Both the position numbers and the translations under genes were made by a program. Positions 38,492-57,548 of a DNA stretch of 64,000 bases are shown one piece after another (the first letter of the stretch is position 1; each line of letters begins with the position of its first letter). The notes under the pieces were generated by a model. It was given only the letters and a program-made list of their open reading frames with translations. It had not been told where the DNA came from and searched no databases. This DNA is from Microthyrium microscopicum (Eukaryota), in the NCBI GenBank assembly GCA_010405405.1, contig MU004239.1, forward strand, positions 1,442,722 through 1,506,721, written 5' to 3'.

Positions 38492-41400
38492 CTATCTAGC
38501 GAAACCACGCCCGCGGCCCGATGGCTTGCGGACTCGATCCGCCATGGTGGAGGCTCCTCGAACGCTAGTACCCGAACCTCTAGTTGGCGCATTAGAAAAA
38601 GACCATGTTGGAGAGGGCAGTGTTGCATTGTTGGAATTGTCAGATGTAGTTACCTCTGAAATAGATGTCGCTGGACTCGTTGAAGGTTGAGCTGAATTTG
38701 TCTCGCTCGCTGTTTTGGTTGCGGTGTGAGTCTTCTTTCCGAAGCGGCTTTTCTTCGAAGTAAGCGTGAAACCTTCGACTCTAGTGGATGCGGACTCTGC
38801 TGGAAGATTCCCGCTAGATATTTTAGGAGAATCACTGGGGCGTTGGAAAATACTGGATCCTCCTAGTGGTTGAGAGTATGCGTGGGCCAGCTGTGTAGAA
38901 TCGTCTGTTTGTTGAGAAGGGGGAAATACTTGCTGCGGAGGATGAGTTGCTCGCTGAGTAGTAGAAATAGCATGGTGATCTTGGATGGGGAACTCTGGCG
39001 AGGCTTCCGTGCTTTGGCGAATATTAAGTCCTCGTGGCTGGGAAGAGACCTCGATGACCGGTCGATTATTGTTTGCTTGCTGAGGAGGTTGAACCACTTG
39101 CTGCGAAGTCTGGATTGCTCGCCGAGCAGACGAAACGGTCGTTTGATCTCCATTAGGCACATTTGGAGAAGCTTCAGCGCGATGGCGAACATTTGCTGGC
39201 TGAGAAGCGTGACCAATTTGCTGTGGAGCGTAGGCTGCTTGCGGAGTCGAAGGATTGCCCACACGTTGAGGTTGATCATTAGAAGGTCGTTGATTGAAAG
39301 CTTCAGTCAATCGCTGATCCAGAGTACCAAGATCGTGGGATCCTCCAGAATTGGTTGATTGACCAACTGTGATACGATTTTCTTTTAACGGACCGCGATC
39401 TGATGGTAGCTGTGCATGGCTCTCTGTACGACTCTCCGGACGTGAAACAGGATAACGCTCAGGATTCTGCTCTGGACGGCCAATAGGGGTCCTGTTAACT
39501 CCAGTAACCGGGTTACGTCTTGCGTCACGAGGCCCTCTACGGGGAGTACGCTTAAACTCCCGATCTGGTATGAGTTAGCTTAGGCCTCTCTCATGATAGG
39601 TACTTTGAAAGACATTGGCTATCAAGATAGACAAAATAATTGGTGTGCTCCATCGACTTCGATGCCTCCCACATGGGACGCTCTAGTATTGAGTGCGTTT
39701 GGTCCCATAAAGGGCGTTTAGATCGGCCAAATTCATCAAATGTAATGGCAAATATAGCACCTTCTGTTTAGTAGCGTTCGTGGGAGCCATCGAAGTGGAT
39801 GAGAGCGCGCCATCATTTTCACTATCGGTTTTGTGACTATCACCAAAGCTATGCTCTGATATTGTGAAGTTCCTAAGACACTGACGTTGCCAGCCCTCGG
39901 CAAAAAGGACATTGTACGGGGTTTACTTACTAGCTCTATAATTAGGGGGAGGCTCTATCTCCTCAAAAGAAGGCGAACGGGCGGGTTGCGGCGGTCCACG
40001 ACCACCCGAGAACGACGAGCGTGGCATATTTGGAGCTTGAGGTCGGTCATAGGCACGACGGTATGAAGCTTCTACTGGTCTACGAGAACCAGAACCAGTG
40101 CGGTTGGCGGAAAACGTATTGTCGCGCGGTCCTACCACTTCCGCATCTGAACGGGCTAGTTCGAGAGCTTCATACAGGGAAAGTGAACGCTCTGAGCCAT
40201 TCGAGTTCTGGGCACGACCTGAGTCATTACAACCGTTTGAAAGTCTCTCCTCTACTCGTGTATGGTCCATTTGAACTGATCGAGGTGCTCCGTGGTTACT
40301 ATCGCGATTATACTGACGATCATCGCGATGATGCAAGCCATGAGCGCTGGAGACATTGGATCGTTGAGAAGCTCCGGAAGGAACCTGAACGTCGTCAATT
40401 ATGCGAAATCTGACCACCGCAGAATTGGTTGACAGGACGCAGTGTAACTCATTTCCCTTGACTTCACTCCACTTCGCACGACGTTGGTAATCCGCAACCT
40501 GCGATCTCCTTATCGACGGTACGGCCTCGGAAAGTGACTGCGGACGCGAGACATCACGGAAAACTGCTGGCGAGTACTGCTGGGTAGCTTGTACGGATGC
40601 CGTCCCTGCCTGCACCTGACCAGGAGGCAGAGAAGCCGACAGAATGTTGGCAGAAGCAACTGGTTTGGCTGGAACATATTGGCTAGAGTTGGCTATCCCA
40701 TGCTGCTGCGGTTGGGCCGAAGCTTTTCTAGAAGCAAGTTGTCCTGGAGGGAATGGCACTGTGTCCGGTGCTTTGTCTACAGCAAGCTGCTCAGAACCTT
40801 TAAGCTTTGGCTGAGGGAGTCCTTGCGAAATCGTTGCCATCATCTCATCTCGCACAACGTTCATGTAGCCTGGAGTTGGCTTGACACTATCGCCACCGGA
40901 AGAGTCAGACGAATCCTCGGCAGCCGCGATTGCTTGTCTGGAGAGTGCTTGCACAGAAGCTGAGGATGTTGATTGAGCCACAGAGGCTGTCGTTACTGGA
41001 GGTGGGGTCGTAGAAATGGGTGATGAGACTATCAACGGCAATGTATTGGGTTTTGGAGATTTGGAAATCTGGAATTTGTTAGCTTTTAGCCTCATGCAAC
41101 AATCAAATCATCCCAGGCTACTTCAGTGTAGGGTTTATGCCACCTGAATGAATCGCTTGCCAATTGATGGATGAGCCCGCATGGTGCTGCTTTGGGTCAT
41201 AATAAGTGAGCCGAATCGACGAATATTCCCATCGATTACGTTGTCGGCCATAACACTTAATAAACAGTGACTGCTTCAATTACCATCGTATCGTCTGTTG
41301 TAAGTTTTGCGTGGTTGATGGGAATTGAAGCTGCTGCTCTTTAAGAAGTGTTATGGTAGCCATCGTGGTCTATGGACCCCATCCAAACGGCTCACTTATT

Positions 41401-44400
41401 TTGTCCCTGGAGATATTGCAAAAGTAGGGGCCACTTACAATTTGAGGATGCGATGGGCCAGCGGCTACTACTGGACTGGCAACTTCATTGACTTCTGGAG
41501 TGAAATATCCAGGCAGTCTTCTCGCAGACTGAGTAAACAATGCTATCTGTTCTCGCTGCAGTGCTGCCGGATTTTGCGGGTGGAAACCGAAGACTCCATG
41601 CCTCGAGGAAGAATGTTGCATAACAACTTCAGACTGGTGTTCAGGCGGTAGTCGACCGATCAGGTATTGTTGCTGTTCAGCCCAGGTATGCTGCCCCATG
41701 AAAACCTGTCCTGATGGTTCTTGTTCCGGTGGTCGAAGGCGTGTCATCTGCGTGATCGAAAACCAATCACCGAGTTGCGCGAACTTGATCATCGCATCGA
41801 GCTTCTGCTGATGTTCAGCCGTTAATGGAGGAGGTTTCTTTTCAGCTCGCCAATCATCTGCATCGTGCAAGCTAGTAATAAGTGGCTTGAGGCGATGTAT
41901 TTCTACAAGGCCATCCAAGATGGCATCTTTTCCGTCTAGGTGCATAGCCGCTCCTTCTAGCATTGGAGCGAAAGCAGTTGGATGCTTCAGGTATCTTTGA
42001 GCAGTCACAGAGACTCGGTTCCGCCAGTGCTTTTGCTCTAGAACTTGACCCGTAAGCTGAATTTTGCGAGTGCATTGATTCAGCAGCTGCTCCTCGAAGG
42101 TTCCTTCAGTCGCAAAGCGATAGACAAACACCGGCTTCTCTTGCCCAAGGCGATAGGCTCGACCAATGGCTTGTTCTTCGACCTGCGGATCCCAGCCAAA
42201 ATCGTAGATGATTACACGATTTGCGCCGAATATATTGAGACCGGTTCCACCTGCTTTTGTAGAAATCAAAAGGACCGAGCTTGCACCACTGTTGAAATTT
42301 TCGATCAGCTGGGGCCGGGCTTGAGCTGCGACGTTGCCATTGATCTTTTCATGCTTTATGTTTCGTTCTCGAAGTACAGCGGAGAGATATTCGATAGTTT
42401 CTAGACTCTGTGTAAAGCATAGCGTTTTGTCCCCCTGGGCCTGGAGGTGGTCAGTGTAAGATTACAATCAGAGCTAACACGCCCAAAAGACCCTTCGGTC
42501 TTTTCGCGATAAACAAGTAAAACACTTCTTGCATTGAATGGCGCCCATAGCACTCGAATAGTGAAAGCCTTCTATGGGAACCATCAAATGTGATGGGAGA
42601 TGTGAGGTTTCTTGGTTGTGTTGAATTCCCGAGGAACACAACAGCCATTGTCTTTCAGGGTCAATACATAAACCGCCGCACCTCCCATCACATCCAATGG
42701 CATCAATAGTACTCGACTGACGAACACATCTTATGGTAGCCATCGAGTACGATGAGATATGCAATGCTGGTATTGAGTTGTATGTCGTCAAGAAATGTAA
42801 TTTAGCAAGGGAGAATCTTACCATAGAGTGGTTGACAATGTGTAGGAAACACATTGTCTTGTTGGAGTGAATAACATCGCGCTGTGCAGCTTTTTCAATC
42901 AGGTCGTTGACTTCAGAATCTTCGAGGCCAGGGAACTGTTAGAGTGTATTAGTTTGAAGTCAGCCACCAATGCAACAAGTCATAACTCACACTAGGCCGT
43001 TCTGCAGGCTTCTTGCCCTCCCGAAGAATCATATGAGAACTGAATATAGCTGGGTGATTGAGAATCCAGGTAAGGACTGGACCATGAGTTAATACATCGC
43101 CAATCTGTAGCAGCTTTCGGGCCTTAATGGTTTCGAGAAGATCAAGGTATGCGGAATAGACCTCGACCTGAAGTTGCGTTAACTGGATGTTGATTATGAA
43201 TTCCTGTTTTGGAGGTAAGTGTCCCTTAGAAAATGTTAGCTCAGAGTGCCATCAAGTTGAAAATTTCCCATCAGGTACTATGGCAGCATGGCCATCATTT
43301 CTCGGGTTCGAGATAATCTTGCAAACGGAATGAGAACATGATGTCAATGTCGTCAGAGAGTTGATAGGGATGTATTCACGCGAGGAAGTCTTACCTTGAG
43401 TACCGAGGCGTCCTTTCGATGAACCTTTGGTTTGAGCACTTGCTCCAGCGCTTCCAAAGTCAATCTAGCTTCGGTTTCTTCGTATTCGGCGCAGTCGGGA
43501 TTGCTTCCAAGTAAGATGGGTGTTTCAAAGATGGTCTTGAATTCCCGTAAGTTTCCAAGGTAACCTGGAGAAACAAGATCGATCATCGAAAAGTACTCTA
43601 GGAGGTGATTAGAGAGTGGAGTGCCAGTAAGTGCCACTCTTCGCTTGGTTTCGATTTTGCATACGGCTGTGCGAGCCTGCGTGGTGGTCTTTTTCACAGT
43701 ATGAGCTTCGTCGAAGATGACCAGATTGCTCTTGGTCAACAGAAACTGTCGCGTCAGTTGCGTCGCAGGGACCAATACATCATCGAGTGTATCGTCTTCA
43801 AGGTCGGGTGTAGTGCTATTGACCATCGGGACTGAGTTGTTTAACATGCCTTGAGATGGACTTTTGGTCAAGTTGGTGAACATGGTGTATCCAATGATCA
43901 GAACACCACCGTTGGTGCCCCAGTCTTCAATGAAGTGGTCTCGGTATTGGTCTCCAGCTTCAATGCAGTAGATTCTACCCAAGATTTGGGTAGACCGCTT
44001 GGGGAGCCATTTCACGAATTCAGCGTCCCAGTTGCGTATCAAGCTTGGCGGACATACTACCAACGTACGGGACTGTTGAAGCGCTGCCGGGATTTGATCA
44101 CGAATTCCTGGATCTCGGGATCGTATAGCCTCTTGTATTGTAACGAGGAGGGTGATAGCCTGCATGGTCTTCCCAAGGCCCATAGTGTGCGACAAAAGAC
44201 AGCCAGATGCCATAGATTCATCAGGCTGAGCGACAATCTCACGCCAGAGGAACTGCAAGCCTGATATCTGATGATCCTTGAGTTCAGCTGCAGCATGTTC
44301 ATTCACGTAAATATATTCCTGGCCATCCTCTTTTCCAGGGTTGATAACAATTGCGCTGGTCGATCTTATTTCCTGCGAATTCATCTCTGCCCGATATTCA

Positions 44401-46276
44401 GTTTCCTCCAAACGACGCAACGCTTGTGCCTGCGTCTTATTCTTTTTCATCGGTCTGGAGAGATCTTCTGTTGCCTTGCGTTTCTCTGTCTGATCTTGCT
44501 CTGAAGATGCTTCTTTGACAACCGGAAGTGAAGATCCCAAGTCGGGTATTTCTATTTCTGAGCTTTCATTGTCCGAGCTAGTCTCCGATGTTTCGCTTTC
44601 TGAATCGCTAATCGTGAGGTCGATTACCTCAATAGGTGGTTTGCTAAGAGATTTCAAGGCCAAGCTAGCAGGGTCGGGACTTGGAGAACGATCTCGCATG
44701 GTGATGTCTTCATCTTCGACGTCAGATGAGTTGATCATTGTGTATTCTGGTTCATCTGGCACTGCCATGTCTCGATCAGGAGTGTTTGATGCAGATGGCA
44801 TGGTGCTGTTATGCTTTGAGCCATGTGGAAGATCTTCAAGCTCTGTGGTCGGCTGTACGATCGCTGGCGTAAATGGCTCGGTTTCCTTCTGGGGATCAGC
44901 GTCTTCGGATTCTGCCTCTGATTCAGTATCAAGTAGCTCTCCCTCGGAGTCATCATCGCCGCCAGTGTGTTTTCGAGCGGGTTTTGGCTTCCGCTTTGGA
45001 GCTTCGACTTGAGGAGGTGGAAGTATTTGCTGAAGAATGTCTAGTTCAAAAGATAGTTTCTGGATGTCAAAAACAGTAGCCTCCAAGACACCACACTGCT
45101 GCCGTAGCTTCTTCTCATTTCTTCCAGTGGTACCGTCGATAAGATCTTCTCGAATTCTGACAAGTCTGGATTGGAGAGATTTCACTTGCTGACAACGAAT
45201 TTCGCAGGCCACATCACGCTCCAATTGACGCCGAAAACCGGTGTAGAGTTTTAGGGCGTTCGACTTCTGAATAGGTAGGCGTCGTGAGGTCCAGATGCTC
45301 TTGAGCTTCTGGATCTCGTCATCCACAATAAAAGTCGCATCAAACGGAGGCAGGGTTTCTGGCTCGATCTCTTCTTCTTCTTCTAATTCTCGCGCAAAGT
45401 TGCTGCTTGTGTCTGATGAGGCGTCCTCTTCGTACTCGGGTATATTCACGTCATGAATGATCGGGTCAACATGGTGTCGGCTGAAATTGACGGTGCTTAT
45501 TTCTCGACGTATGGTGTCCCAGCTATCGAGAAGTCTTCTATAGCCTTGACGAAGATCTATGTGCGATCTTTCTGGATTGTGTAAGGCAAATTCCTAGCAT
45601 TTATTAGTATTGTATCACCAAATCAAAAGTGACGGTTGTGAGCAACGGCATGGCAGAATAAATGGCCTACTCCCATACACGCTAATGGCTTCCACCCCCT
45701 CTATTCCTTAGCGGGTGCTTTATTGCCATTGTCTACGATTAGATGTCAAGTTTTGAACGTCTTCTATGGCAAAGAAAGCACTCGATAGCCCAGCGAAACG
45801 CATGGTAGCCATCGTAGTGGATGGGAGCGCGCCATTTATTTTGCAATGCGGTTGGTGATCTCGATTAGGAAAAGGGTTGGGATGCAGATACATACCTCAA
45901 TGGATTCGCCATCCGACGAAGCACCGTCAGAGGCATCGATCTCAGATAAGTCAGGACTTTCGAAGCCTGGCTGTCGAACAATATGCTCCGTAGAAGCGAT
46001 TGGCTGCAAAATTGCTCGACGCTGGGAAGACTTGGCAGCAACTTGGGGGGAAAACTTGGCAGCAACTTGAGTAAATAGCTTAGCATGACCAGCTACGCAC
46101 AATTGCGGATCTTTTTGACAGGCAGCAAGAAGAGTGGAGGTTATCTGGCCATCTTTAGGCAAAGTTCTTGCCGTAATTAGGCCAACAATTGCTGGTACTG
46201 CAGTGTTGGAAAGCCAGGGAAAGAGAACGCCCGAAGCCCAGTCGTTTGGGTCATGAGATATGCCGCCTTCTTCCAT
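38492..46276 (-). CDS. SNF2-family ATPase of the ATRX/Rad54-like group, probably the SAD-6/ATRX orthologue; 7 exons
   Basis: GCLLSHTMGLGKTMQ, DEAH, ALTGTPLSN, STKAGGTGLN, QAIGRAYRLGQ. Introns 45594-45895, 43225-43394, ~42937-42990, 42441-42821, 41069-41438 and 39565-39930 join the listed ORFs. Confidence 0.87.
39623..39831. mobile_element. Fold-back (MITE-like) element, full-length copy in an SNF2 intron
   Basis: Arms TGGTGTGCTC-CATCGACTTCGATGCCTCCCAC and GTGGGAGCCATCGAAGTGGATG-AGAGCGCGCCA; strongly similar to the 59636 copy. Confidence 0.8.
41194..41407. mobile_element. Fold-back (MITE-like) element in an SNF2 intron
   Basis: Perfect 13-bp stem AATAAGTGAGCCG 41201-41213/CGGCTCACTTATT 41388-41400; inner CCATAACACTT/AAGTGTTATGG; right end TTATTTTGTCC shared with the family. 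Confidence 0.78.
42525..42760. mobile_element. Compound fold-back element with four arm motifs in an SNF2 intron
   Basis: 12-bp stem ATGTGATGGGAG/CTCCCATCACAT; CCATCaaatgtGATGG, CCATCacatccAATGG and TATGGTAGCCATCgagtacGATGA motifs. Confidence 0.7.
45643..45854. mobile_element. Fold-back (MITE-like) element, full-length copy in the first SNF2 intron
   Basis: GCAGAATAAATGGC..CTCCCA..ATGGCT pairs with AGCCAT..TGGGAG..GCCATTTATTTTGC; inner CGGGTGCTTT/AAAGCACTCG; ends CAACGG..CGGTTG; 212 bp. Confidence 0.8.
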
Positions 46277-47521
46277 GATATGGCGTGCGGATACTCGAGG
46301 GTTGTGTTGTGTTGTTGAGTCGTTTCGTCAGCTTCAAATCTAAATGATGGGTTGTTATATTTCCCTAGGAATGAAGCTTATTGGAGAAGAAGTAAAAAGT
46401 CGAATAACAGAGGTAAGAGAATGTGTGTAGTTGCAGGGACTGGGAGAGGTAGAGGCACCGACTGGCAGGCAGTGTACTATGTTGCCTGGAGCAAGGAGGC
46501 CAGCAGATATATAGTACCTCAGTTGCTCCAGTCGAGGGTCCAGTGAAAGCGGAGCGAGGTCAGAAGCTGAGTTGGCTCATGTAGTGAAATAAATCAATTT
46601 AAGATACGTGAAAGTTCAGGGCTTGAGAGATGCTGATGATCAGTGTTGAGGTTGAGGATGGATAAACAGAGGTACAAGACGCGTCCAGATCCATGCGGGG
46701 AGTTTTGACGCGGTGGGAGAAGGTAACGCGGCGTGTAAACAAGCATGGAGAATAGCTTGAGGTCGTTCTTGCCAGAAGATGGTGATTTGGCCTGCGAGTT
46801 CTGGGCATCTGGCAGTCACAGATGAAGAACAGTCCATAATAGGTTAAGGCCGCCTAGACTATGAAGAAGTCGCGACTCTGGCCTCTATATGAACATGTAC
46901 AAATGCCTAGATGCTTCTTAAGACGAAGAAGCGGACTATGAATTGTAATTGTCCGCTATTCAATGTTCAAGAATCAGAGCACGAGTATTCGGGATTGATA
47001 GTATGGTTTTTGTTCAGCTGCTGCTCCATTTGCCGTACTTCTATCATTCCAAGCTCTTTTCCAATTCTGTTGTTCGGGGCAGTCGATAACCTGTCGAAGC
47101 AACAGTAGTATGGCTCCAGAGAATTGTTGTACAATAGATATTGGTCTCCTCAACAGGGATAAGACTCTCGTCTCAACGGCGGCGAAGTAGGGATGACTGC
47201 AGACTGGCGCTTGGACTTGCAGTTGCATATGGATGTGGTCGATATCAAAATGGACGCCACTAAAATCGTGGCTGCATTTTTCGGCAGGCGCTATGAATTC
47301 GGCCCGACCCAGCTCCTTCCTCCGTATGTAGGTAAATCGTTACCGACTCGGCCGTTCCTTCTTCATCCAGCAGTTGCTCCTGCTTCATTGTTTTCAGCGA
47401 GCACTTGCCATTTCCAACACTGTGTAAAATATCAAAAGACACAAACAACAACAAACCAACACCTCAATAATTCCTTCAAACGTCGAATTCAGATGTTTTC
47501 CACCTGTAATTTTTCAGAGGT

Positions 47522-47634
47522 CAGTGACCTGGCTGCCTAGACCCAGTGACCTCGTCTGCCTAGACCCAGTGACCTCGTCTGCCTAATATTTGTGCCAAGA
47601 TTTGCCAAGCCGTTGAGAAATCGACGGGTATAAA
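47522..47634 (+). promoter_or_regulatory. U2 upstream region: 3 tandem ~23-bp repeats and a TATA box
   Basis: CAGTGACCTCGTCTGCCTAGACC-type units at 47522, 47544 and 47567; TATAAA at 47629-47634. Confidence 0.6.
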
Positions 47635-47677
47635 GCCTCACTATTCATCGACTTCTTCCAAACCTTCTTCTTCTTTT

Positions 47678-47920
47678 CCAGCTTTCCTTTGCGTAAGTAT
47701 CCCTCAGTCTCTTGGTTTTTGAAGATTTTGCTAACAATTCTCCCAGCTTTTGGCTTAGATCAAGTGTAGTATCTGTTCTTACGACCTTAACCGGTGGTAT
47801 GGCTCCAAGGAGCTCATTCAACTGTTAAGCCACTTTTTACAACCAGCTTGCGCACTCCCTGGGCATGCCCATAGTCGCAGGCACCGTGTTCTCTGTCTTG
47901 CACTACTTCAGAGTGACGCA
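47678..47920 (+). ncRNA. U2: U2 snRNA gene interrupted by a 54-nt spliceosomal intron (47693-47746)
   Basis: Removing GTAAGT..GCTAAC..CAG restores TTTGC|CTTTTGGCTTAGATCAAGTGTAGTATCTGTTCTT; branch-site recognition GTAGTA 47766-47771; stems IIa, IIb, III and IV with TTGCACTAC loop. Confidence 0.93.
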
Positions 47921-48473
47921 AATCAATTTTATTTTTCATTGCAGTCTTTGCCTTGCGCAGGGATGTGAGGAAGAAATCTTCTTTTGATTACTAGGTCCTG
48001 GATAACAAGCGTGCCAGTGTCAGTGCCATAAGTGCATAACACATAAGATTGTGAGGGTGCTTTGAACCTGCGATAGGAAGCTTCTGGTGTTGTATCCAGA
48101 TGAAAGCTTTGCTGCCTATCAGATGATTGGCAACACTCTAATTTATTCCATCCTATGTGAGATGAAAATGTGTCTTCCTTATGGGGCATTTAGAAGCAGT
48201 CGAGGGTCTTGCGCATTCAATAAGCGCGATGTTGAATGCCGTAGGTTATCTCAGAGTGCCTTTTATATCGTCGACCGTGGGACCCTCTCAATTTGGTCGT
48301 AGTTATAGCAGTAGCCCCAGCGCCTTCAAAGTGACATCTAGATTCGTAAGCACGATAAAACTCCATATAAATATGAGGCTCTGGTGACGTGCTAAAGCAC
48401 CAGCATTGTTCCCTGTCATCCGCTGTATCCATTTCCGATCTCGCAAACATTTCAACCACAACTCACATCATTC

Positions 48474-50146
48474 ATGATGGCCTACGTCAAAGAGTTCGCC
48501 GATTATCCGCCCGAAATCTCTCAACAGCAACAGGACTTTGCGGTGGGGCAGCTGAAGAATTATGCGCTCAGTGTTGGCTTCACGGTTAAACCCTTCGCTG
48601 TCCAAACAGATGATGGGCCAAAACTTCCAGAGGGAGCGGTTCCTGCTCCAATAACTTTATATCCGAGTTTGTTTCCCAAGTCTTGCTTCGAGGAGGCGTT
48701 GGATATACAGCAATCGTACAATACGCTCTATGCCAATATTACGAGAGATACGGCTTGGTTAGAAGACATTGTTCCACAGTGAGTTGATTATAGACACTTC
48801 ATCTGCGCCCACTTGATTGAATATGAGATGATTCTTGAACTACACTAACACTATCCAGACTCGCAAAAATCGACGACTTTGTTGAAAACCTCTGGAACAT
48901 TCACCTCCAACTCAAAGATGGCGGCTACACGCAACCACTCACTCTCGGCCTCTTCCGTTCTGATTACATGGTCCATCTGGACAAGACACCAGGCTCAAAA
49001 CCTCAAATCCGCCAAGTAGAATTCAACACCATCGCTTCCTCCTTCGGCGGCCTGTCGACCCGCGCAGCCCAGATCCACCGCTACCTACTCACAAACAACA
49101 TCTACCCATCGACCTCATCGTCCGCTCTCTCACCAGACGCTCTCGCACCATCCGACGCTGCCGCCGGTCTAGCCCATGGCCTCGCCAACGGCCACAAAGC
49201 ATACCTCTCCCACACAAAGCCCACTATGGAGGACACATGCATTCTATTCATCGTCCAGCCATCAGAGCGCAACATCTTCGACCAACAACATATTGAAAAC
49301 GAGCTCGTCAACACCCACTCCATCCCCGTCTTCCGCAGCACCCTCGCAACCGTCCTAACCCAAACACACCTCACCGATACCTCCGTCCTAATCTACACCC
49401 ACCCCTCCACCCAGCGCAAATACGAAGTAACACTCCTCTACTACCGCGCCGGCTACGCGCCCACCGAATACACCTCACCCGCCGACTGGACCGCCCGTCT
49501 AACCCTCGAGCGTTCCCGCGCCATAAAATGCCCCACCGTCCTTCTCCAGCTCGCCGGCATGAAGAAAGTACAGCAAGTACTAGCATTGCCAGACTCACCG
49601 CATCTTCAACGTTTCTTGCCAAACGCTGATACAGAGAGGTTGAGAAATACGTTTGCGTTAATGTATCCTCTCGACTCCACGCCATCCGGCAAGGAAGGCC
49701 AAGCCATCGCCCTCAACGAAGCTACAGCGAAGGGCTACGTCCTCAAACCACAACGCGAAGGCGGCGGAAACAATATCTACCGCAGTGATATACCCGCCTT
49801 TCTGAAGGAGAGGCCGGAGAGTGAGTGGGGTGCATATGTGCTTATGCAGATGATTGAGCCGCCCGCGCAACGGAATACTATCGTACGCATGACTGCAGCG
49901 AAAGAAGGCCAGGGCGTCGTAGGTGTCGTAGAAACTGGCGGTGTAATCTGCGAGTTGGGAATCTATGGAACATGTCTCTTCAGCATGGCAGGGCAGACAG
50001 CAGGTGCTGTGCAAAGTAATGAAGTCGCTGGATATTTATTGCGGACGAAGGGTGATACAAGTAGTGAGGGTGGAGTTGCGGCGGGTTTTGGAGCGCTGGA
50101 TAGTGTTTGTTTGGTTGGGGATGATGCGCTTGGTGCTGGAAGTTAG
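48474..50146 (+). CDS. GSH2: Glutathione synthetase (eukaryotic type)
   Basis: FRSDYM, QVEFNTIASSFGGL, YYRAGY, AIKCP, KPQREGGGNN, LLRTK..EGGVAAGFG; intron ~48780-48858. Confidence 0.95.
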
Positions 50147-50286
50147 TCAAGTACTATTGAAGATTAGCAAGCAATTATATGATGATCTTGAGAATTCGCT
50201 GAACACGAGGGATTGGTTGCTTGTTATAGATTCTAGAGTGGCTAGTAAAGTGTGGGTATATTGCATATAAACACCAAAAGAAATCG

Positions 50287-51768
50287 TCATATTCGTGGTA
50301 CCTCCTCTAATCCTTTACCGTTTTTCCATATTTTCTCGCCCTTCGCCTTGTCGCTTCCGCCGCGTCTTATCTTCTTTCGGCGGCGGCCGAATAGTAAGAC
50401 CCAGCCGCGCATTGCCATCCTCCATGGCATTGCTGCAAGTGTGTAAATGCTTTGTGCTACCTGCGCGATTATCCCTTGAACCGTGTCGAGCGCCCATACT
50501 ACTAGTCCTGGTCTTTGAGCCATCCGCGAAGCTACGGCGGCGAGGGATAAGGCGTCGTTGACACGTTTATCTAGATCGCGGAGTCGGGCGTCTAGGACGA
50601 CGGATTGGAGGGATGCGCGCTTTTCGTACCGACGTACTGCGCGATTGAGCGCATCGAGTTGGGGTTGGAGAGACTGTTTAGCGTTGTTCACCATGGCTTC
50701 TTGCGCGGCTTGGGATGGTGGTTTGTCGGTTTTTGGAGATGGGGGAGGTGAGTGTGGTGCGTCATCTGCTGATTCGTTCAGACGAGACTCGAGCTGTTGA
50801 AGTCGTTGGTAGACGGGGCCCAGATCAGCAGTCACGGACTCGGAGGTTTGCTCGGCCTGATCGTAGTTGGCGATGATCTTTTGGAGGTGTAGTGTGCGTG
50901 CTTCCACGAGCTTGAAGAGGTGAATGATTGGCCGCACTTCGGCTGCCAGTACGAAGAGTGTTAGATTGGAATTTGAGACCAGGCCACCCGAAGGACGGGA
51001 TAGATATGGTCGGAGTGCGTGGAGGAGATAGGCGACGCCTAAGGGAGAAAGGAAGATTGTTGAGAGGGACATTAATTCGAGCTTTTGGAGACTTTGGCTT
51101 GCTTCGTGCTGTTGCCGCTGGAATAGCGAGGGACATGATCTACTTTCTTGCGCAATCGGGTGCGCATTATCCGCCATGCCATCAACGTCGTGTATAGCGC
51201 CCTCATTGTCTGTTCCGGCTTCTGTGACAGCTACATCTTCGTCTTCGAGATAATCTGGGTCGAAATCGACGAAAAGTTTGCCTTGCGCTGCATGGTACCA
51301 TTCCCACGGCCACTTGACGCTCCAATAGAGGAATAGACATCCAAGCGCGAGTATTAAGACGTCCGTCATAACAGCACCGCCATTCTCGAATATCATGCCG
51401 GACAGCGCGGGTAAAGCGACAAATGCCAGCGAAAACGCGTGCCAATGCGACCCCTCATCCTGCTTTGCGGCGTTTGCAGAGCCGTTCTCGTTGATGGTGG
51501 ATAAATATGCTGGATCGAGACCGATGTCCGTCGAAGAGTGGGAAAACTGACGATGGATTTTAGTAATGTTATAGCTCATCCGCCTGGGAAAAAACGGTAC
51601 CTGTCGCGATCTTGACTTGCGGAGGGGCGGAATGCCCGAATTGCTGTGGCCACCAGTAGACGTTCTACGCAGAGGCAGCCCTGTAGAGCGACGTGGGAGT
51701 TGCGCACCCGTAGCAGATATGAGAGGATCTTCCTCTAAGATTGAAGAAGTAGACCTTTCGGAGGCCAT
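50287..51768 (-). CDS. Hypothetical membrane protein with C-terminal coiled coil
   Basis: 493-aa ATG ORF with TM segments (FLYWSVKWPWEWY) and LDALNRAVRRYEKR coiled-coil stretch. Confidence 0.8.
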   Translation of the reverse strand: MASERSTSSILEEDPLISATGAQLPRRSTGLPLRRTSTGGHSNSGIPPLRKSRSRQVPFFPRRMSYNITKIHRQFSHSSTDIGLDPAYLSTINENGSANAAKQDEGSHWHAFSLAFVALPALSGMIFENGGAVMTDVLILALGCLFLYWSVKWPWEWYHAAQGKLFVDFDPDYLEDEDVAVTEAGTDNEGAIHDVDGMADNAHPIAQESRSCPSLFQRQQHEASQSLQKLELMSLSTIFLSPLGVAYLLHALRPYLSRPSGGLVSNSNLTLFVLAAEVRPIIHLFKLVEARTLHLQKIIANYDQAEQTSESVTADLGPVYQRLQQLESRLNESADDAPHSPPPSPKTDKPPSQAAQEAMVNNAKQSLQPQLDALNRAVRRYEKRASLQSVVLDARLRDLDKRVNDALSLAAVASRMAQRPGLVVWALDTVQGIIAQVAQSIYTLAAMPWRMAMRGWVLLFGRRRKKIRRGGSDKAKGEKIWKNGKGLEEVPRI

Positions 51769-54248
51769 TGTGAAGGAATCGGAGGTGTAGTTGGGATGAA
51801 TGGTTGACTAACGGTTGATCTACCAACTCGTCAAACGGCTATTGTTGATGTCGGGAGGCATTGGATTCGAATAGATCGGTGTAGTTTGAGCTTCAAACTC
51901 CGAATAGAAAGACACAACTTAAATTTCGGCTTATGATAATGGTGTGGTTGTATGATGGCGTGGGAGTGGTATCAGAGGTTGATATCGTCACAGTTGGCAT
52001 GCAAGCAAGCCGCGAGGGCCCAATGCAGGCAAGTCCATCCAGATGTCCACCCTTGATCCGCAGTGACGCTTTGACTGATCCCTTGGTGGACAGTTGCCCT
52101 GATAATTTTTTGATGGAGTTACTGTTGGTTGTTCTAACTGACTTGAATATAGAGCTGAAAATTCTGGATTTGTGCTTGGAGAGATTGGTGTATCCTCCAT
52201 CATATCATCTAACAGTACTAAGGTGACGAGTGCAACAGTAAAGCGTTCTGACGAGTTGCAATTTATGGTAGATTTCTCAACGAAATTGAAGATACTGGTT
52301 TCACCATATCTGTTACATCATGTACTGGTAAAGACTACGGATTGTAAAGTTCCTATTCAAGCTTGTACAGGCCTAATACTCTTGGAGAAGTAAGGACCAA
52401 GTCAAATAAGTACCTAAGTACCTAAGTACCTGTGAACTAGAAAGAAAATACAGTACACCATGAAACAAGCTAAAAGACGTAAGGGAGAGTCACTAATGGA
52501 GGAGCCGTATGAAAGGAAGATCGCCTTCCGATGAGCATCGTGTAATGAGATCAGCGCTGAGTGTCTATATATGAGAAGACCTAATTTTCGATCTATGGTA
52601 AAAGGGACATGCACAAAGTGTGAGATATATCGTATGTGGCATGTGCAAATGGAAAAGAAGGTGTAGAGAATCTAGTCTAAAAATAGATCGTGCATAAGAC
52701 GATATGAGAATGGCCCACGGTGTCCAACAGCAAATTCGACTGTCTACATAGCGAAATTATTCTACATTTAATGTTTTGGTACCGATCAGTATGATGAACT
52801 TCCTGCAGCGAAGTTTTAATCAGTATCCATGGAGAACATCTTCTAGTATGCGTCAAAATTGCCAATGCCCACCAGAATCCGAACAATCCCATCCCAGTGG
52901 TGGATATCTACTCCGAGGCAAAGATCTTACTCCAATGTGCGTGCGACTCATCTATCGACTTTACAACAAATAAGTGGCGGGAAGTGTAACGACTTCCTGG
53001 ATGAAGTCTTGAAACTACGGGGAAAGACCTAGTTCTCTACAGCCTTTGGACCGATTCCCGCATGCACGTACTACTGAAGTGCGTCAACAGGGAAGATATC
53101 AGTCCTCTTTTTGAAAGCTTTGCCGTGGATCTCGAAAATAAAGTTGATTAGACAGGCGATCTGCAGTCAGATCTGAAGGCATTTGGTTGGCGGTTGGTAA
53201 CTCGTACTGCATGTTGGTGTGTTCCCGAGAAAAGGATGTCTGATATCCCGAACACTGCCACACTCGTTCCCCCCTGGTCAATTGTTGGCACCACTGGCGG
53301 CGGCGAGGGCAGACTATTGTTACGATCAGGCGAATAGTGCTTTCAGCTGACTGCAGTTTACGGCTGACGGAAGTGCCTGGAGGTTTTAGTAAATTTGGAC
53401 TGATTTATAGAAAGTCTAGACGGTAAATATAATGGAAAGAAATAGAGACATGTTGAAATCGGGGCAGGAGGAGGAACAATGATATATCTTTGTGACTTGT
53501 GAGCGGCCAAGGTAAACCAGCCTTGTGTCTGACTTGGATCGGCCGGTATATTGGGATGTCTTGTAATAGTTTATAGACAAACTAGAAAAGTCTGGATGAA
53601 AGCAAGACACTTAGGCTCAGAGGTGCTCAAGAGGCTGAAGATGCGGCGATACAGAGGGCGACTAATGGGCCTAGATCCCTGTCCTTTCAAAGCGGCAGTG
53701 ACGACCAAACAGCCTTAACAACCCCCAGTCGTTCCTTCTCATCTCGAGGTGACCATCACCAATTGTCTTTTCTCCAACTCAACTCCTGCTCAACCACCCT
53801 TGATCCCTCCCATTCATCCTTCCCCCTCTCTTCACTTCTTTCATACTCTGTACTTTCTTACCTTTCCTACTGCATTTTTCGTCCTTGTACGCCCTTCTGC
53901 TACTCGGCAATCCCTTCTTCTCGTCTCTTCTTGCCCTTTGCTTCTTCCTGCATCCCTTGTGCCCAGGGCCCCAGAACACTGCATAGCCGCTGCGTAATAC
54001 CCATCAAGCCTTTTCTATTCCATCCAAGTACGAGGTCGAGATCGCTACCAGGATTCATCCCAGCCTACTTCCAACCAAACCACCTTTTCTTCCTCAAGCG
54101 CCCTCCTCTGACTTCTTTCCTCCTTGCTGCTATTATCCAGCTTTCCCGCAACATCCTGCCATCACCCTTTCCTTCCCGTTTACAACGTTTCTGGCCGGTC
54201 TGCCGCAAACACAATGATATTCCCAGCATCTCGTCCCTGCGTCCAAAT

Positions 54249-57200
54249 ATGACATCCCTCAACAACTGGGGCCCGTCTTCGACCTCTTTTCCTCGTTCCT
54301 CTAGCATATCATTCACGGCTTCCCAACCATGGCTGACCTTTCTACTCGCCATATTCCTGCCCACGCAGATACTCGCTGCTTTCGTTCCATTCTCCAATTG
54401 CCTGGACCAGAGCATCATACAATCTAATAATCCGCAACAACTTCAGTTTGTCCCTCTTTATGTAGACGCCAAATTCGATCTAGAGAATGAGAGTCATGGA
54501 TTGGGGATAACAGTCTATGGGAATGTGACGGGGCAAAGTACTGCAGATACTAGATCATATCCTCCGCCAACAGATCCGATATGGGGGAACAAAACAGATC
54601 CATTCGGAAAGATTGTTGATGCGACAGCAAACTTTACTACTCTCTTCACACAGTTTGACTTTCTATCCTATACTCCCTACAATGCACAGCCTGCCCGATT
54701 CTGCAATACCACTCGAGGCTCTGAATGTCCTTGGGGACCCCTTTTCGGCAAGAATGCCAGTGATCCACAGGAATTACATGCCTTTGCTGTTTCCCACAAC
54801 ATGTCAAGTACCTATGAATTCACTACCCTCTTCGCTACAATGAAGATCAAGTCTGGAGATACTGGATCCCCACTAGTCGCTTGTGTGCAGGTCAACGTCA
54901 CACCAGATCTGGGACCAGCAATGTCAGGTGCTTTTAGATGGGTACCTATCGTGATTCTGGGACTGGTGGGCATTGCAACGTTTCTCGCTGCTAAGTATCA
55001 CCCCTCCAGCTCCAAGAACTTTTTCTACTGGTCAAGCAACTACGGGAGAGATGAGGATCTTCTAAGGTTGTTGACTCCTGGATTCGCAGACTGTTTGCAA
55101 TACATTCAGTTTGTTGTTCTTTCTGGCAGTCTGTCTCTGGCTTATCCCGGATTCTATCAACCTGTGGTCAGTAAAGTGGCCTGGTCGACACTCACATTCA
55201 ATGAGAGTTTTGTCTCACGCGGCAATGGATCACAATCTCTTGTGGACGGCATTTATCGAACCAATGGCACATATGGCTTATCAAACTTGGCTCAGCTAGT
55301 CGGCATGACTACGGATTCAGATATATGGCCAGGAATGGCAGTATGGCTCTTGGTCATAGTTGGTTCAGTAGTCGTCCTATCACAGATCGGATTCGTGGTG
55401 CACTGGGGCTTCAGAAAATACAACAAGTCAGAGCCACAAGATTTGCGAAGCAAGAACCTCCCATTCACTGTGGGCAACGTGACAAGGATTGTTTACAACT
55501 ACTTGCTTCTACCTATTGTTTCCCTGTCAATATTTCAACTGGTTGTAGCAGGCCGTTCTCCCGGATGGGAAGTTGCTCTGTCGCTTGTCGTTTTGGTATC
55601 AATCATGGGATTTGCGGTCTGGACTTTCTACCTCATCTTCTCCGCCAATCCTCGTGTCAAATTATTTGACCATCTTCCTTCTCTGCTGATGTATGGCCCA
55701 TTGTACAATACGTACTCTGACGAAGCTGCGCCATTTGCCTTGATCCCGGTGTTCCTTAACTTTGTGAGAGGATTAGCCATTGGTGCAGTTCAGCCTTCTG
55801 GAGTCGCTCAGCTTGTCATTCTAGCTATTTGCGAAATCGTTTTCATCTTAACGATTCATGCCTTTCACCCGTTCCAACATATGACGTCTATGAACGCCTA
55901 TCACACCATCTTTTCAGTCCTACGATTTCTGGCACTTTTGCTTAGTATCGCATTCGTTCCATCATTGGACGTGGATGAAGGCATCAAAGGATGGATCGGC
56001 TATGCGATTCTGTTTTTGCATGCTGCAGTTCTGATCTTCGGATTCTTCCTGAATGCGATCCAGACTTTGATAGAAGTCTTCGCCCGAATGGCCGGTGCTG
56101 GTGAGAATCCAAGCGGTCTGGCTCGAGTGTTTGGAGTTCGCCAACTATCAAAGAGGCACGAAAGACCTCATAGTTTGAGTTCTAGTGCAGCCATGTTAGA
56201 TGAAGGCATGAAATCACCACATAACAGATTGACCAGCTTATCTGCCAATAGCAGACTTTCGTCTATCGATAGATTAAGTCAAGGTTATGAAGGTTATTCT
56301 CATGGAGAGGATTTGAGTGTTCGGTCTGGCCCAAGTCCCAGTCCTAGTACGCCTGGTACCAACCAACCAAACGGATTTTCATTTCTTCCAGGACCCGGTG
56401 AATACCAGAGACGGGGTAGTGGCTCTCTCTCGGTTCCCGCGCCATACTACCGGCCTCCTAGACAAAGACGTACAACTTTGGAAACGGCAACCGAAGGCCG
56501 CAGCCTTGAACTTCAAGCTACAGATGGAGCCGCCCGCGAACCAATATCTGTAGAGCCGGCCAATGACCTACGGCGAAACTCGATAATGTCGGCCGCTTTC
56601 AGAGACGAGTCAGACGCGGATAGAAGGAAACAGACGGACTACTATAGCAGCCGCGAGGCTGATTTCCTCTATGGAGTACAGCGAGGCCCTGCTCTAAATA
56701 ATACTCCAACACGACGAAGAGGTACTGGTCCGGCAGATCCAATGCATCCGATAAGCACAGCTACTGGTTGGTTTAAAGGTCTCTTCGGCGCAAGATCGAA
56801 GGAAAAGGGCAAAGGCTTCGAAGTTGTGCGAAGTACCCCTTTGCACCGTCTAAGAGAGCAAGACGGCAGCTTACACCCAATGATTCAAGAACCACTTGAG
56901 CCATACACCGATGGACCAACTAGTCCACCAAAAGCAAACCCTCAGCCTGAGCGAGGTATAAGCATGGCTCGCCCACCACCGACCCGCGAAAGAAGCATGA
57001 GCGATGATCTTCTTCTCCCTGGTGGTGCACCATCTTTAAGACCTCTTTCACTAGGAGGCAGTATCACTCTGCCCGAGCGTGCCAACGCCAGAAATACCGG
57101 CGGGCTTAAGGACATGGAACCCGAGTTAGTTGATACGGCCTCTGGCTCGCCTACCAGGCGCACTCAACTTAAGGACAAGAATATTTTCGTTGAACGACAA

Positions 57201-57548
57201 CCATCGTTCCAACGTACTTCACCCTATATCGACTCGGCGTTCCCTCCAAATCGTGTTCCATTTCACTCCGACTACCAGGGTAAACAATCCGAAAACAATT
57301 CCATGACCTCCAGCATATACCCGCCCAGCATTCCTCCTGACGATCCATTCAACCCCACTCGGGCGTCCGGGCATTTCAAGGCTGGTCAAGTTAGCCATCA
57401 TCTGGCCGCTGAGAGCATGCATACTTATGCTTTAAATCCATCACACATGGGTAGTGCTGCTGAGCTAGTTGATTCACCTTCACTCGATGTACCTCTGGCG
57501 GATGGCACAGCGGCGCCGAAAGAGCCACATTACGGCAACATGATATAG
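54249..57548 (+). CDS. TRP-like/flavin-carrier (FLC/Pkd2) family membrane protein with luminal ML-like domain
   Basis: Signal/TM then FSNCL..LQFVP luminal domain; TPGFADCLQYIQF..LSLAYPGFYQP; about 9 TM helices; long disordered tail. Confidence 0.85.
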   Translation: MTSLNNWGPSSTSFPRSSSISFTASQPWLTFLLAIFLPTQILAAFVPFSNCLDQSIIQSNNPQQLQFVPLYVDAKFDLENESHGLGITVYGNVTGQSTADTRSYPPPTDPIWGNKTDPFGKIVDATANFTTLFTQFDFLSYTPYNAQPARFCNTTRGSECPWGPLFGKNASDPQELHAFAVSHNMSSTYEFTTLFATMKIKSGDTGSPLVACVQVNVTPDLGPAMSGAFRWVPIVILGLVGIATFLAAKYHPSSSKNFFYWSSNYGRDEDLLRLLTPGFADCLQYIQFVVLSGSLSLAYPGFYQPVVSKVAWSTLTFNESFVSRGNGSQSLVDGIYRTNGTYGLSNLAQLVGMTTDSDIWPGMAVWLLVIVGSVVVLSQIGFVVHWGFRKYNKSEPQDLRSKNLPFTVGNVTRIVYNYLLLPIVSLSIFQLVVAGRSPGWEVALSLVVLVSIMGFAVWTFYLIFSANPRVKLFDHLPSLLMYGPLYNTYSDEAAPFALIPVFLNFVRGLAIGAVQPSGVAQLVILAICEIVFILTIHAFHPFQHMTSMNAYHTIFSVLRFLALLLSIAFVPSLDVDEGIKGWIGYAILFLHAAVLIFGFFLNAIQTLIEVFARMAGAGENPSGLARVFGVRQLSKRHERPHSLSSSAAMLDEGMKSPHNRLTSLSANSRLSSIDRLSQGYEGYSHGEDLSVRSGPSPSPSTPGTNQPNGFSFLPGPGEYQRRGSGSLSVPAPYYRPPRQRRTTLETATEGRSLELQATDGAAREPISVEPANDLRRNSIMSAAFRDESDADRRKQTDYYSSREADFLYGVQRGPALNNTPTRRRGTGPADPMHPISTATGWFKGLFGARSKEKGKGFEVVRSTPLHRLREQDGSLHPMIQEPLEPYTDGPTSPPKANPQPERGISMARPPPTRERSMSDDLLLPGGAPSLRPLSLGGSITLPERANARNTGGLKDMEPELVDTASGSPTRRTQLKDKNIFVERQPSFQRTSPYIDSAFPPNRVPFHSDYQGKQSENNSMTSSIYPPSIPPDDPFNPTRASGHFKAGQVSHHLAAESMHTYALNPSHMGSAAELVDSPSLDVPLADGTAAPKEPHYGNMI

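Follow-up and report, generated by a model that had tools for sequence, protein, structure and literature searches.

The U2 snRNA gene of Rhodotorula hasegawae contains an mRNA-type intron (cited in the accessible parts of PMC5855946 and PMC2396436), and spliceosomal introns also interrupt fungal U6 genes, as in S. pombe (Canzler et al. 2016), with up to four introns in a single gene (PMC5855946). Reverse splicing is the origin proposed in the literature, and the text available of PMC5855946 notes that introns in U1 and rRNA genes do not fit an explanation by proximity to the active site. A second group of related systems comprises feedback loops in which an snRNP acts on the pre-mRNA of its own proteins. 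In the USSE system, the U11 snRNP feeds back on the U11-48K and U11/U12-65K pre-mRNAs (PMC5473595), and U1C and U1-70K are connected by cross-regulation (PMC3798272); as far as the accessible text of both papers goes, the snRNP reads an element in the pre-mRNA of its own protein, and unproductive forms result.

The window, i.e., the whole 64-kb stretch of DNA from Microthyrium microscopicum (Dothideomycetes) analysed here, contains a U2 gene with a GT-AG spliceosomal intron in a conserved part of the gene, as does the U2 gene of Rhodotorula in the partial descriptions at hand. Unlike the Rhodotorula case, the host is an ascomycete, the intron lies in stem I after nucleotide (nt) 13, and the genome holds two U2 paralogs with introns one base apart. 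The Rhodotorula hasegawae intron, attributed to work by Takahashi and colleagues from 1993, is said to lie just downstream of the branch-recognition region. The introns of fungal U6 and U3 genes are likewise short and canonical and reside in ncRNA genes (accessible sections of PMC5855946 and PMC5832005), a pattern that the U6 copies of the M. microscopicum genome fit; the present case differs from them in that the host RNA is U2, for which Rhodotorula is the sole other example in the literature searched. An earlier note on this DNA had assigned the intron to the kind known from fungal U6 genes and Rhodotorula U2, and PMC5855946, in the part available, bears this out. The intron is therefore of a known kind, at a position not found reported: a search of main texts outside subscription journals returned no ascomycete U2 intron, and neither an intron after U2 nt 13 nor a pair of U2 introns offset by one base was found in the non-subscription papers searched. 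The gene extends the short list of U2 introns by an example from an ascomycete and by a site in stem I.

RF00004 (U2) is the sole Rfam family matched at gathering level in the window (47734-47927, 113.2 bits against a gathering score of 46). The alignment of the unspliced gene covers model positions 1-192 in full from 47734 onwards, taking the tail of the intron as a false 5′ end. The intron had been expected to make standard annotation truncate the gene; instead, Rfam gives a full-length match with a wrong 5′ end, which means that it can conceal snRNA introns behind an apparently complete alignment. The identification of a U2 gene at 47678..47920 holds, apart from its start, which is most likely 47680 rather than 47678.

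All elements of the gene lie on the plus strand. A TATA-like box at 47626..47635, presumably part of the promoter, aligns with a block found upstream of the two U4 genes of the genome (L088, L089) and of a further gene, L091. The pyrimidine tract at 47652..47679, which runs up to just before the probable U2 start, is common to the same three genes and ends in register with the 5′ end of the intronless U4 gene L088; the combined TATA and pyrimidine block is shared with this U4 gene, and the start of U2 exon 1 is in register with the U4 start. Exon 1 (13 nt, probably 47680..47692) provides the 5′ arm of stem I and, judged by its pairing with U6, the U2 strand of U2/U6 helix II. It is followed by the putative 54-nt intron (47693..47746) with its branch motif at 47730-47735 and the branch A at 47734. 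Exon 2 (47747..47921), delimited by RF00004 and by alignment with the U2 paralog, contains the remainder of stem I, the branch-recognition region, stems IIa, IIb and IIc, the Sm site and stems III and IV. The Sm site (47832..47839) is a variant whose final base is A in place of the G found in the paralog and in both U4 genes. A 3′ flanking hairpin box (47933..47974, fold of −14.9 kcal/mol) is shared by alignment with the U2 paralog, both U4 genes and the L091 gene, i.e., by five snRNA-type genes, and probably serves as a 3′-end processing signal. The locus is very likely a Pol II-type U2 gene in which nt 13 and 14 of the precursor are separated by a normal spliceosomal intron. An snRNA-type promoter would drive synthesis of this precursor, the major spliceosome would remove the intron, and trimming would take place at the 3′ box.

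Approximately 100 nt upstream of the U2 start, a 23-nt unit is repeated in tandem (47522-47585, 2.8 copies, 95% match), and this repeat is not seen upstream of the U2 paralog. The coding neighbours within 38495-57548 of the window are a SNF2-type helicase (minus strand, ~41370-45593), a glutathione synthase (48839-50146) and a TRP-like channel (53586-57548).

The intron has canonical 5′ and 3′ splice sites as well as a canonical branch site: a GTAAGT donor, the branch motif GCTAAC at 47730, with its branch A 12 nt from the 3′ end, and a CAG acceptor. It falls between U2 nt 13 and 14 (GC/C), 19 nt ahead of the branch-recognition hexamer (U2 nt 33-38), in agreement with the approximately 20 nt given previously. 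Its length of 54 nt is typical of the genome: of the nine strong intron-like patterns in the window, seven have lengths of 48-56 nt. Such signals by themselves prove little, because chance alone is expected to yield 1.54 intron-like patterns on a 64-kb strand under a Markov-1 model. What goes beyond chance is the fit of the excision to the structure of U2, not the splice signals. Removal of the intron restores a conserved snRNA element in the predicted fold, the three-pair GCC/GGC top of stem I with a UUUU loop, while the Rfam alignment of the unspliced gene requires a 1-nt gap in stem I. Assignment to the U2 family is supported both by the covariance score and by stem I and U6 pairing after excision, and the proposal that an mRNA-type intron interrupts stem I of this U2 gene is upheld.

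Pairing with U6 points in the same direction. Placed without gaps against the 3′ end of the U6 encoded in the same genome, exon 1 forms 10 of 11 pairs, and this duplex reaches −9.9 kcal/mol, compared with −5.0 kcal/mol for the tail of the intron; 72 of 3000 random 13-mers are equally strong. Exon 2 pairs with the same U6 at 4/4 positions in the register of helix Ia and at 3/3 positions in that of helix Ib. The U2 bases pairing with the AGC triad of U6 follow the intron site at a distance of 6 nt. Since exon 1 pairs in helix II and exon 2 in helices Ia and Ib, the intron lies between the strands for helix II and helix Ib, and splicing of the precursor would be needed to join the two.

If the insert were not spliced, U2 would start inside it, or be trimmed there, and the tail of the intron would form its 5′ end, a reading consistent with the full-length Rfam match from 47734. 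The poor pairing of this tail with U6 and the gap required in stem I argue against it, as does the retention of exon 1 in both paralogs at the position of an snRNA start, and it is regarded as extremely improbable. In the preferred reading, in which the intron is removed, 54 unspliced nucleotides would break stem I and separate helix II from helix I, so that mature U2 depends on U2 that already exists.

The second U2 gene is located on C12 (L001, 1452-1692) and contains a 52-nt intron (1463-1514) with the signals GTTTGT, GCTAAC and CAG. This intron is positioned at G/CC, one base 5′ of the GC/C site in the window copy, and its donor is the weaker of the two. Exon 2 is identical at 165 of 191 aligned positions between the copies. 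The covariance model identifies two U2 copies in the genome (47 of 992 candidates scored), a pattern search gives two forward U2 matches and none with the reversed-pattern control, and a DNA search with the 3′ half of U2 recovers the same two copies together with one match to the 3′ box alone. The earlier note had named an intronless U2 supplying all U2 RNA as evidence that would count against it, and none was found in the assembly by covariance, pattern or 3′-half searches, a third U2 that is split within the searched motif or absent from the assembly being conceivable. Because both copies found carry introns, all U2 passes through splicing, if the introns are spliced, and the U2 of M. microscopicum probably matures through the spliceosome.

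The window copy could be a decaying or minor variant, with its intron real and the intron-bearing C12 paralog supplying most of the U2. It departs from the paralog at four functional spots: stem IIa has 6/7 pairs because of a G·G mismatch and stem IIc 6/7 pairs because of a C·U mismatch (7/7 in the paralog in both cases), and the last Sm-site base (A, not G) and the first base of loop IV are changed. Its Rfam score is also lower, at 113.2 compared with 117.6 bits. Against this stand its intact 3′ box, its intact promoter block, which is nearer to the U4 promoters than that of the paralog is, its consensus splice signals, the preserved pairing of helices Ia, Ib and II, and stem IIb, which is formed in both copies with different sequences. 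A minor role of the window copy is considered unlikely.

The offset of one base between the two introns suggests either that one ancestral intron slid after gene duplication or that two introns were inserted independently at a hot spot, and the choice between them is evenly poised. Sliding is favoured by the adjacent positions within a CC run, the similar lengths (54 and 52 nt) and the TTTGCTAACA branch context that both introns share. It also has a precedent in slight position shifts of Dothideomycete U3 introns, which are read as sliding in the accessible part of PMC5832005. Only 57 of 5000 shuffles reach the alignment score of the pair, a hint of common origin that is not supported by comparison with other introns: among 25 other intron-like sequences, two score 48 with the window intron, and the U2 pair scores 40. 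Independent insertion agrees with the readiness with which this genome gains ncRNA introns. The paralogs provide material for testing one-base intron sliding, possibly with a slide caught within one genome.

To judge from its gene sequences, the M. microscopicum genome is unusually prone to introns in ncRNA genes, in U2 as well as in copies of U6. One U6 gene (L004, 1362-1665, C12) contains four candidate spliceosomal introns (1401-1448, 1454-1503, 1535-1582 and 1598-1648), and the other (L003, 1496-1665, C8, minus strand) is interrupted once, by a candidate intron of 53 nt within the strand for helix Ia; after removal of the candidate introns, the two copies are identical at 92 of 109 positions. 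Both U4 genes are intronless in appearance. U1 and U5 were not found in this genome by the covariance model, a search that cannot show absence; both genes may be split by introns. When the genome was searched at the DNA level with exon 1 plus intron of the window U2, only the query itself matched, and no introner-like family is apparent at that sensitivity.

The L091 gene (~945-1250; C6:1446900-1448500) combines a promoter block of the U2/U4 type and the 3′ hairpin box with an apparent intron that ends near position 1101, and its second exon of 100 nt folds strongly (z −3.8). It matched no Rfam family and has no obvious Sm site; it possibly encodes an undescribed snRNA-like RNA.

The requirement of U2 for its own maturation had been put forward as a possible autoregulatory loop. 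The dependence itself stands, provided that the introns are spliced, since both copies are split; regulation finds no support at this intron, whose splice signals are ordinary and strong. Dependence on splicing is a logical consequence of the gene structure and not evidence of regulation. A switch in which the U2 intron ties U2 output to spliceosome activity would follow naturally from two split copies, and the available text of PMC5855946 raises splicing regulation as a possibility for U6 paralogs. However, the donor and the branch site of the window intron are consensus, the two U2 introns have no special motif in common and are no more alike than unrelated ones (40 vs. up to 48), PMC5832005 argues, in the sections accessible, that U3 introns are unlikely to affect function, and such a loop would be positive rather than homeostatic. 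The switch is judged improbable; rather than a regulatory device, the U2 intron most likely represents an insertion of nearly neutral effect in a genome prone to ncRNA-gene introns. A candidate for U2 feedback lies elsewhere, in the gene for the U2 snRNP protein U2A′, and is separate from the U2 intron.

In a pattern search of the 37.1-Mb genome, the branch-recognition region of U2 has a single antisense match, which falls within the first intron (71 nt) of the gene for U2A′ (Lea1) (L007, 1485-1555, C3). The identity of this gene is supported by PDB matches to U2A′ (E 2.7e-43), and its annotated protein is joined across intron 1; over the 217 residues used as query, the protein is 100% identical to an NCBI entry named for M. 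microscopicum. The element comprises 21 nt that complement U2 nt 26-46 exactly. For a wider survey, 81 U2A′ loci were assembled, consisting of L007 and the best 80 of 309 confirmed metagenome loci, and the counts given below for U2A′ introns refer to this set (best 80 of 309 plus L007). No U2 gene is present within the metagenome loci examined (best 80 of 309). An intron occupies the same site in 46 of the 81 loci, with 41 distinct sequences, and is lacking in 12, while 23 loci gave no call; counts from related species are not independent.

Within this set (best 80 of 309 plus L007), 39 of the 41 distinct introns pair with U2 nt 25-47 better than all 40 of their shuffles, with a median duplex of −28.5 kcal/mol compared with −10.8 kcal/mol in the shuffles. 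Six introns pair weakly (−15.3 to −17.4 kcal/mol), and two of these six are no better than shuffles. A duplex of −20 kcal/mol or better is formed by 35/41 introns, compared with 0/146 control sequences of intron-like type taken from these loci. Where no intron 1 was resolved (35 loci), the strongest duplexes anywhere in or near the gene range from −13.3 to −20.2 kcal/mol. A sequence model built from 39 introns recovered the two held-out introns (E 2.4e-6 and 0.028) and matched nothing in these 35 loci. Among the matches listed, the nearest named proteins of the intron-bearing loci are from Geoglossum (84%), Heterodermia (77%), Thermoascus (74%), Cudoniella (69%), Diplogelasinospora (62-66%) and Zalaria (62%), a rough sign that the element is spread over several Pezizomycotina classes, including Eurotiomycete- and Sordariomycete-like loci.

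The anatomy of the element is that of a branch-site-like complement without a branch point. In 31 of the 41 introns (best 80 of 309 plus L007) it aligns without gaps (at least 14 of 19 positions), no bulged A is present in these, and the bases opposite U2 33, 35, 36 and 40 are invariant. Of 73 changes in the 31 ungapped introns, 38 keep a G·U pair, 37 of them A>G opposite U, numbers to be read with the reservations that A>G is a favoured transition, that there are nine A sites and four T sites, and that relatives share changes; T>C occurs four times and C>T, the other wobble-compatible change, once. In 21/41 introns the complement extends to U2 49-52 as given in the Rfam consensus; the U2 of M. 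microscopicum differs at nt 49-52, and its element is without this extension. The core begins a median of 22 nt from the donor.

The splice signals surrounding the element are weak in nearly all introns. The donor is GTGCGT in 25 of the 41 introns of the survey (best 80 of 309 plus L007) and GTAAGT in one; CTRAC is absent from the last 40 nt of all 41, where TTGAT is the commonest motif (22 introns). Ahead of the true branch site, which is weak, lies another short block that is conserved, GAGC. The introns are 67-147 nt long, and retention of intron 1 produces nonsense, by an in-frame stop or a frameshift, in 41/41.

Taken together, these features give the element in U2A′ intron 1 the look of a conserved feedback switch that senses U2. 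Abundant U2 snRNP would bind the element as a decoy lacking the bulged A, and the bound decoy, which is close to a weak donor and precedes a true branch site that is weak as well, would block productive assembly; the blocked intron 1 would be retained, and nonsense decay would then lower the output of U2A′. This repressive decoy mechanism is the preferred reading, held with about as much doubt as confidence.

Its main rival is an enhancer role, in which recruitment of U2 by the element would help a weak intron to be spliced, with the result that U2A′ is made in proportion to U2 RNA. As the donor and the true branch site are weak, in nearly all of the 41 introns (best 80 of 309 plus L007), an enhancer could be needed, and the element is both strong and close. 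On the other hand, the element takes up the very U2 bases that are required at the true branch site, it has no bulged A in the 31 ungapped placements (same set), and its core begins so close to the donor (median 22 nt) that U1 would probably be crowded by a U2 snRNP bound there. The enhancer role is tentatively placed as the less probable of the two, though it deserves serious consideration.

Two further explanations are very improbable: a box C/D guide RNA that is encoded in the intron and directs methylation of U2, and a fragment of U2 whose insertion was neutral. Guide RNAs typically carry long elements antisense to snRNAs, and the U2A′ element would fit this description. However, the introns are short (67-147 nt in the best 80 of 309 plus L007), none of the 41 has an upstream C box together with a downstream D box, and the Rfam search of the element yielded no family besides a weak antisense U2 match; a box C/D guide was rejected on these grounds. 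A neutral fragment would not have stayed conserved at one intron over loci whose nearest proteins belong to several classes, nor would the sole such match of the genome fall in U2A′ (71 nt of 37.1 Mb), and this possibility was likewise rejected.

The decoy mechanism would place U2A′ beside the two described feedback systems, as in each of them an snRNP reads an element in the pre-mRNA of its own protein and unproductive forms follow (PMC5473595 and PMC3798272, in the parts accessible). A conserved snRNA-complementary element in the pre-mRNA of the snRNP's own protein is found in 39/41 introns, and an unproductive alternative product is predicted from nonsense in 41/41 (best 80 of 309 plus L007). 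In contrast to the 5′ splice-site-like elements read by U11 and U1, as described in the text available, the U2A′ element appears as a long branch-site-like decoy complementary to U2, and its host is a short intron of fungi that would probably be retained as a result. The USSE proper consists of tandem U12-type 5′ splice-site motifs bound by U11. The U2A′ element, being complementary to U2 and not 5′-splice-site-like, does not belong to this class and is USSE-like in action at most.

No description of a U2-complementary element in U2A′ introns was found in the non-subscription papers searched, and the available portions of the fungal ncRNA screens PMC8216456 and PMC5640933 and of the Neurospora paper PMC4549623 contain no mention of it by term search; the element is provisionally regarded as undescribed. 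It is an even question whether filamentous ascomycetes of several classes balance their U2 snRNP through an undescribed U2A′ decoy switch of ~15-25 nt, which would operate in M. microscopicum on top of a U2 supply from split genes. The U2A′ element matters more than the U2 intron. If it works as it looks, it shows how the supply of a U2 snRNP protein is tied to U2 RNA, as the U2-reading counterpart of the U11 USSE and as a natural long branch-site decoy that matches U2 perfectly without a branch A. The proposal can be tested directly in Aspergillus nidulans or Neurospora crassa, if their genes carry the element.

One metagenome contig of 1003 nt (L008) has a U2A′ reading frame that is broken by intron 1 alone (118-204); the gene may have just this one intron, or the contig may derive from a transcript in which intron 1 was retained.
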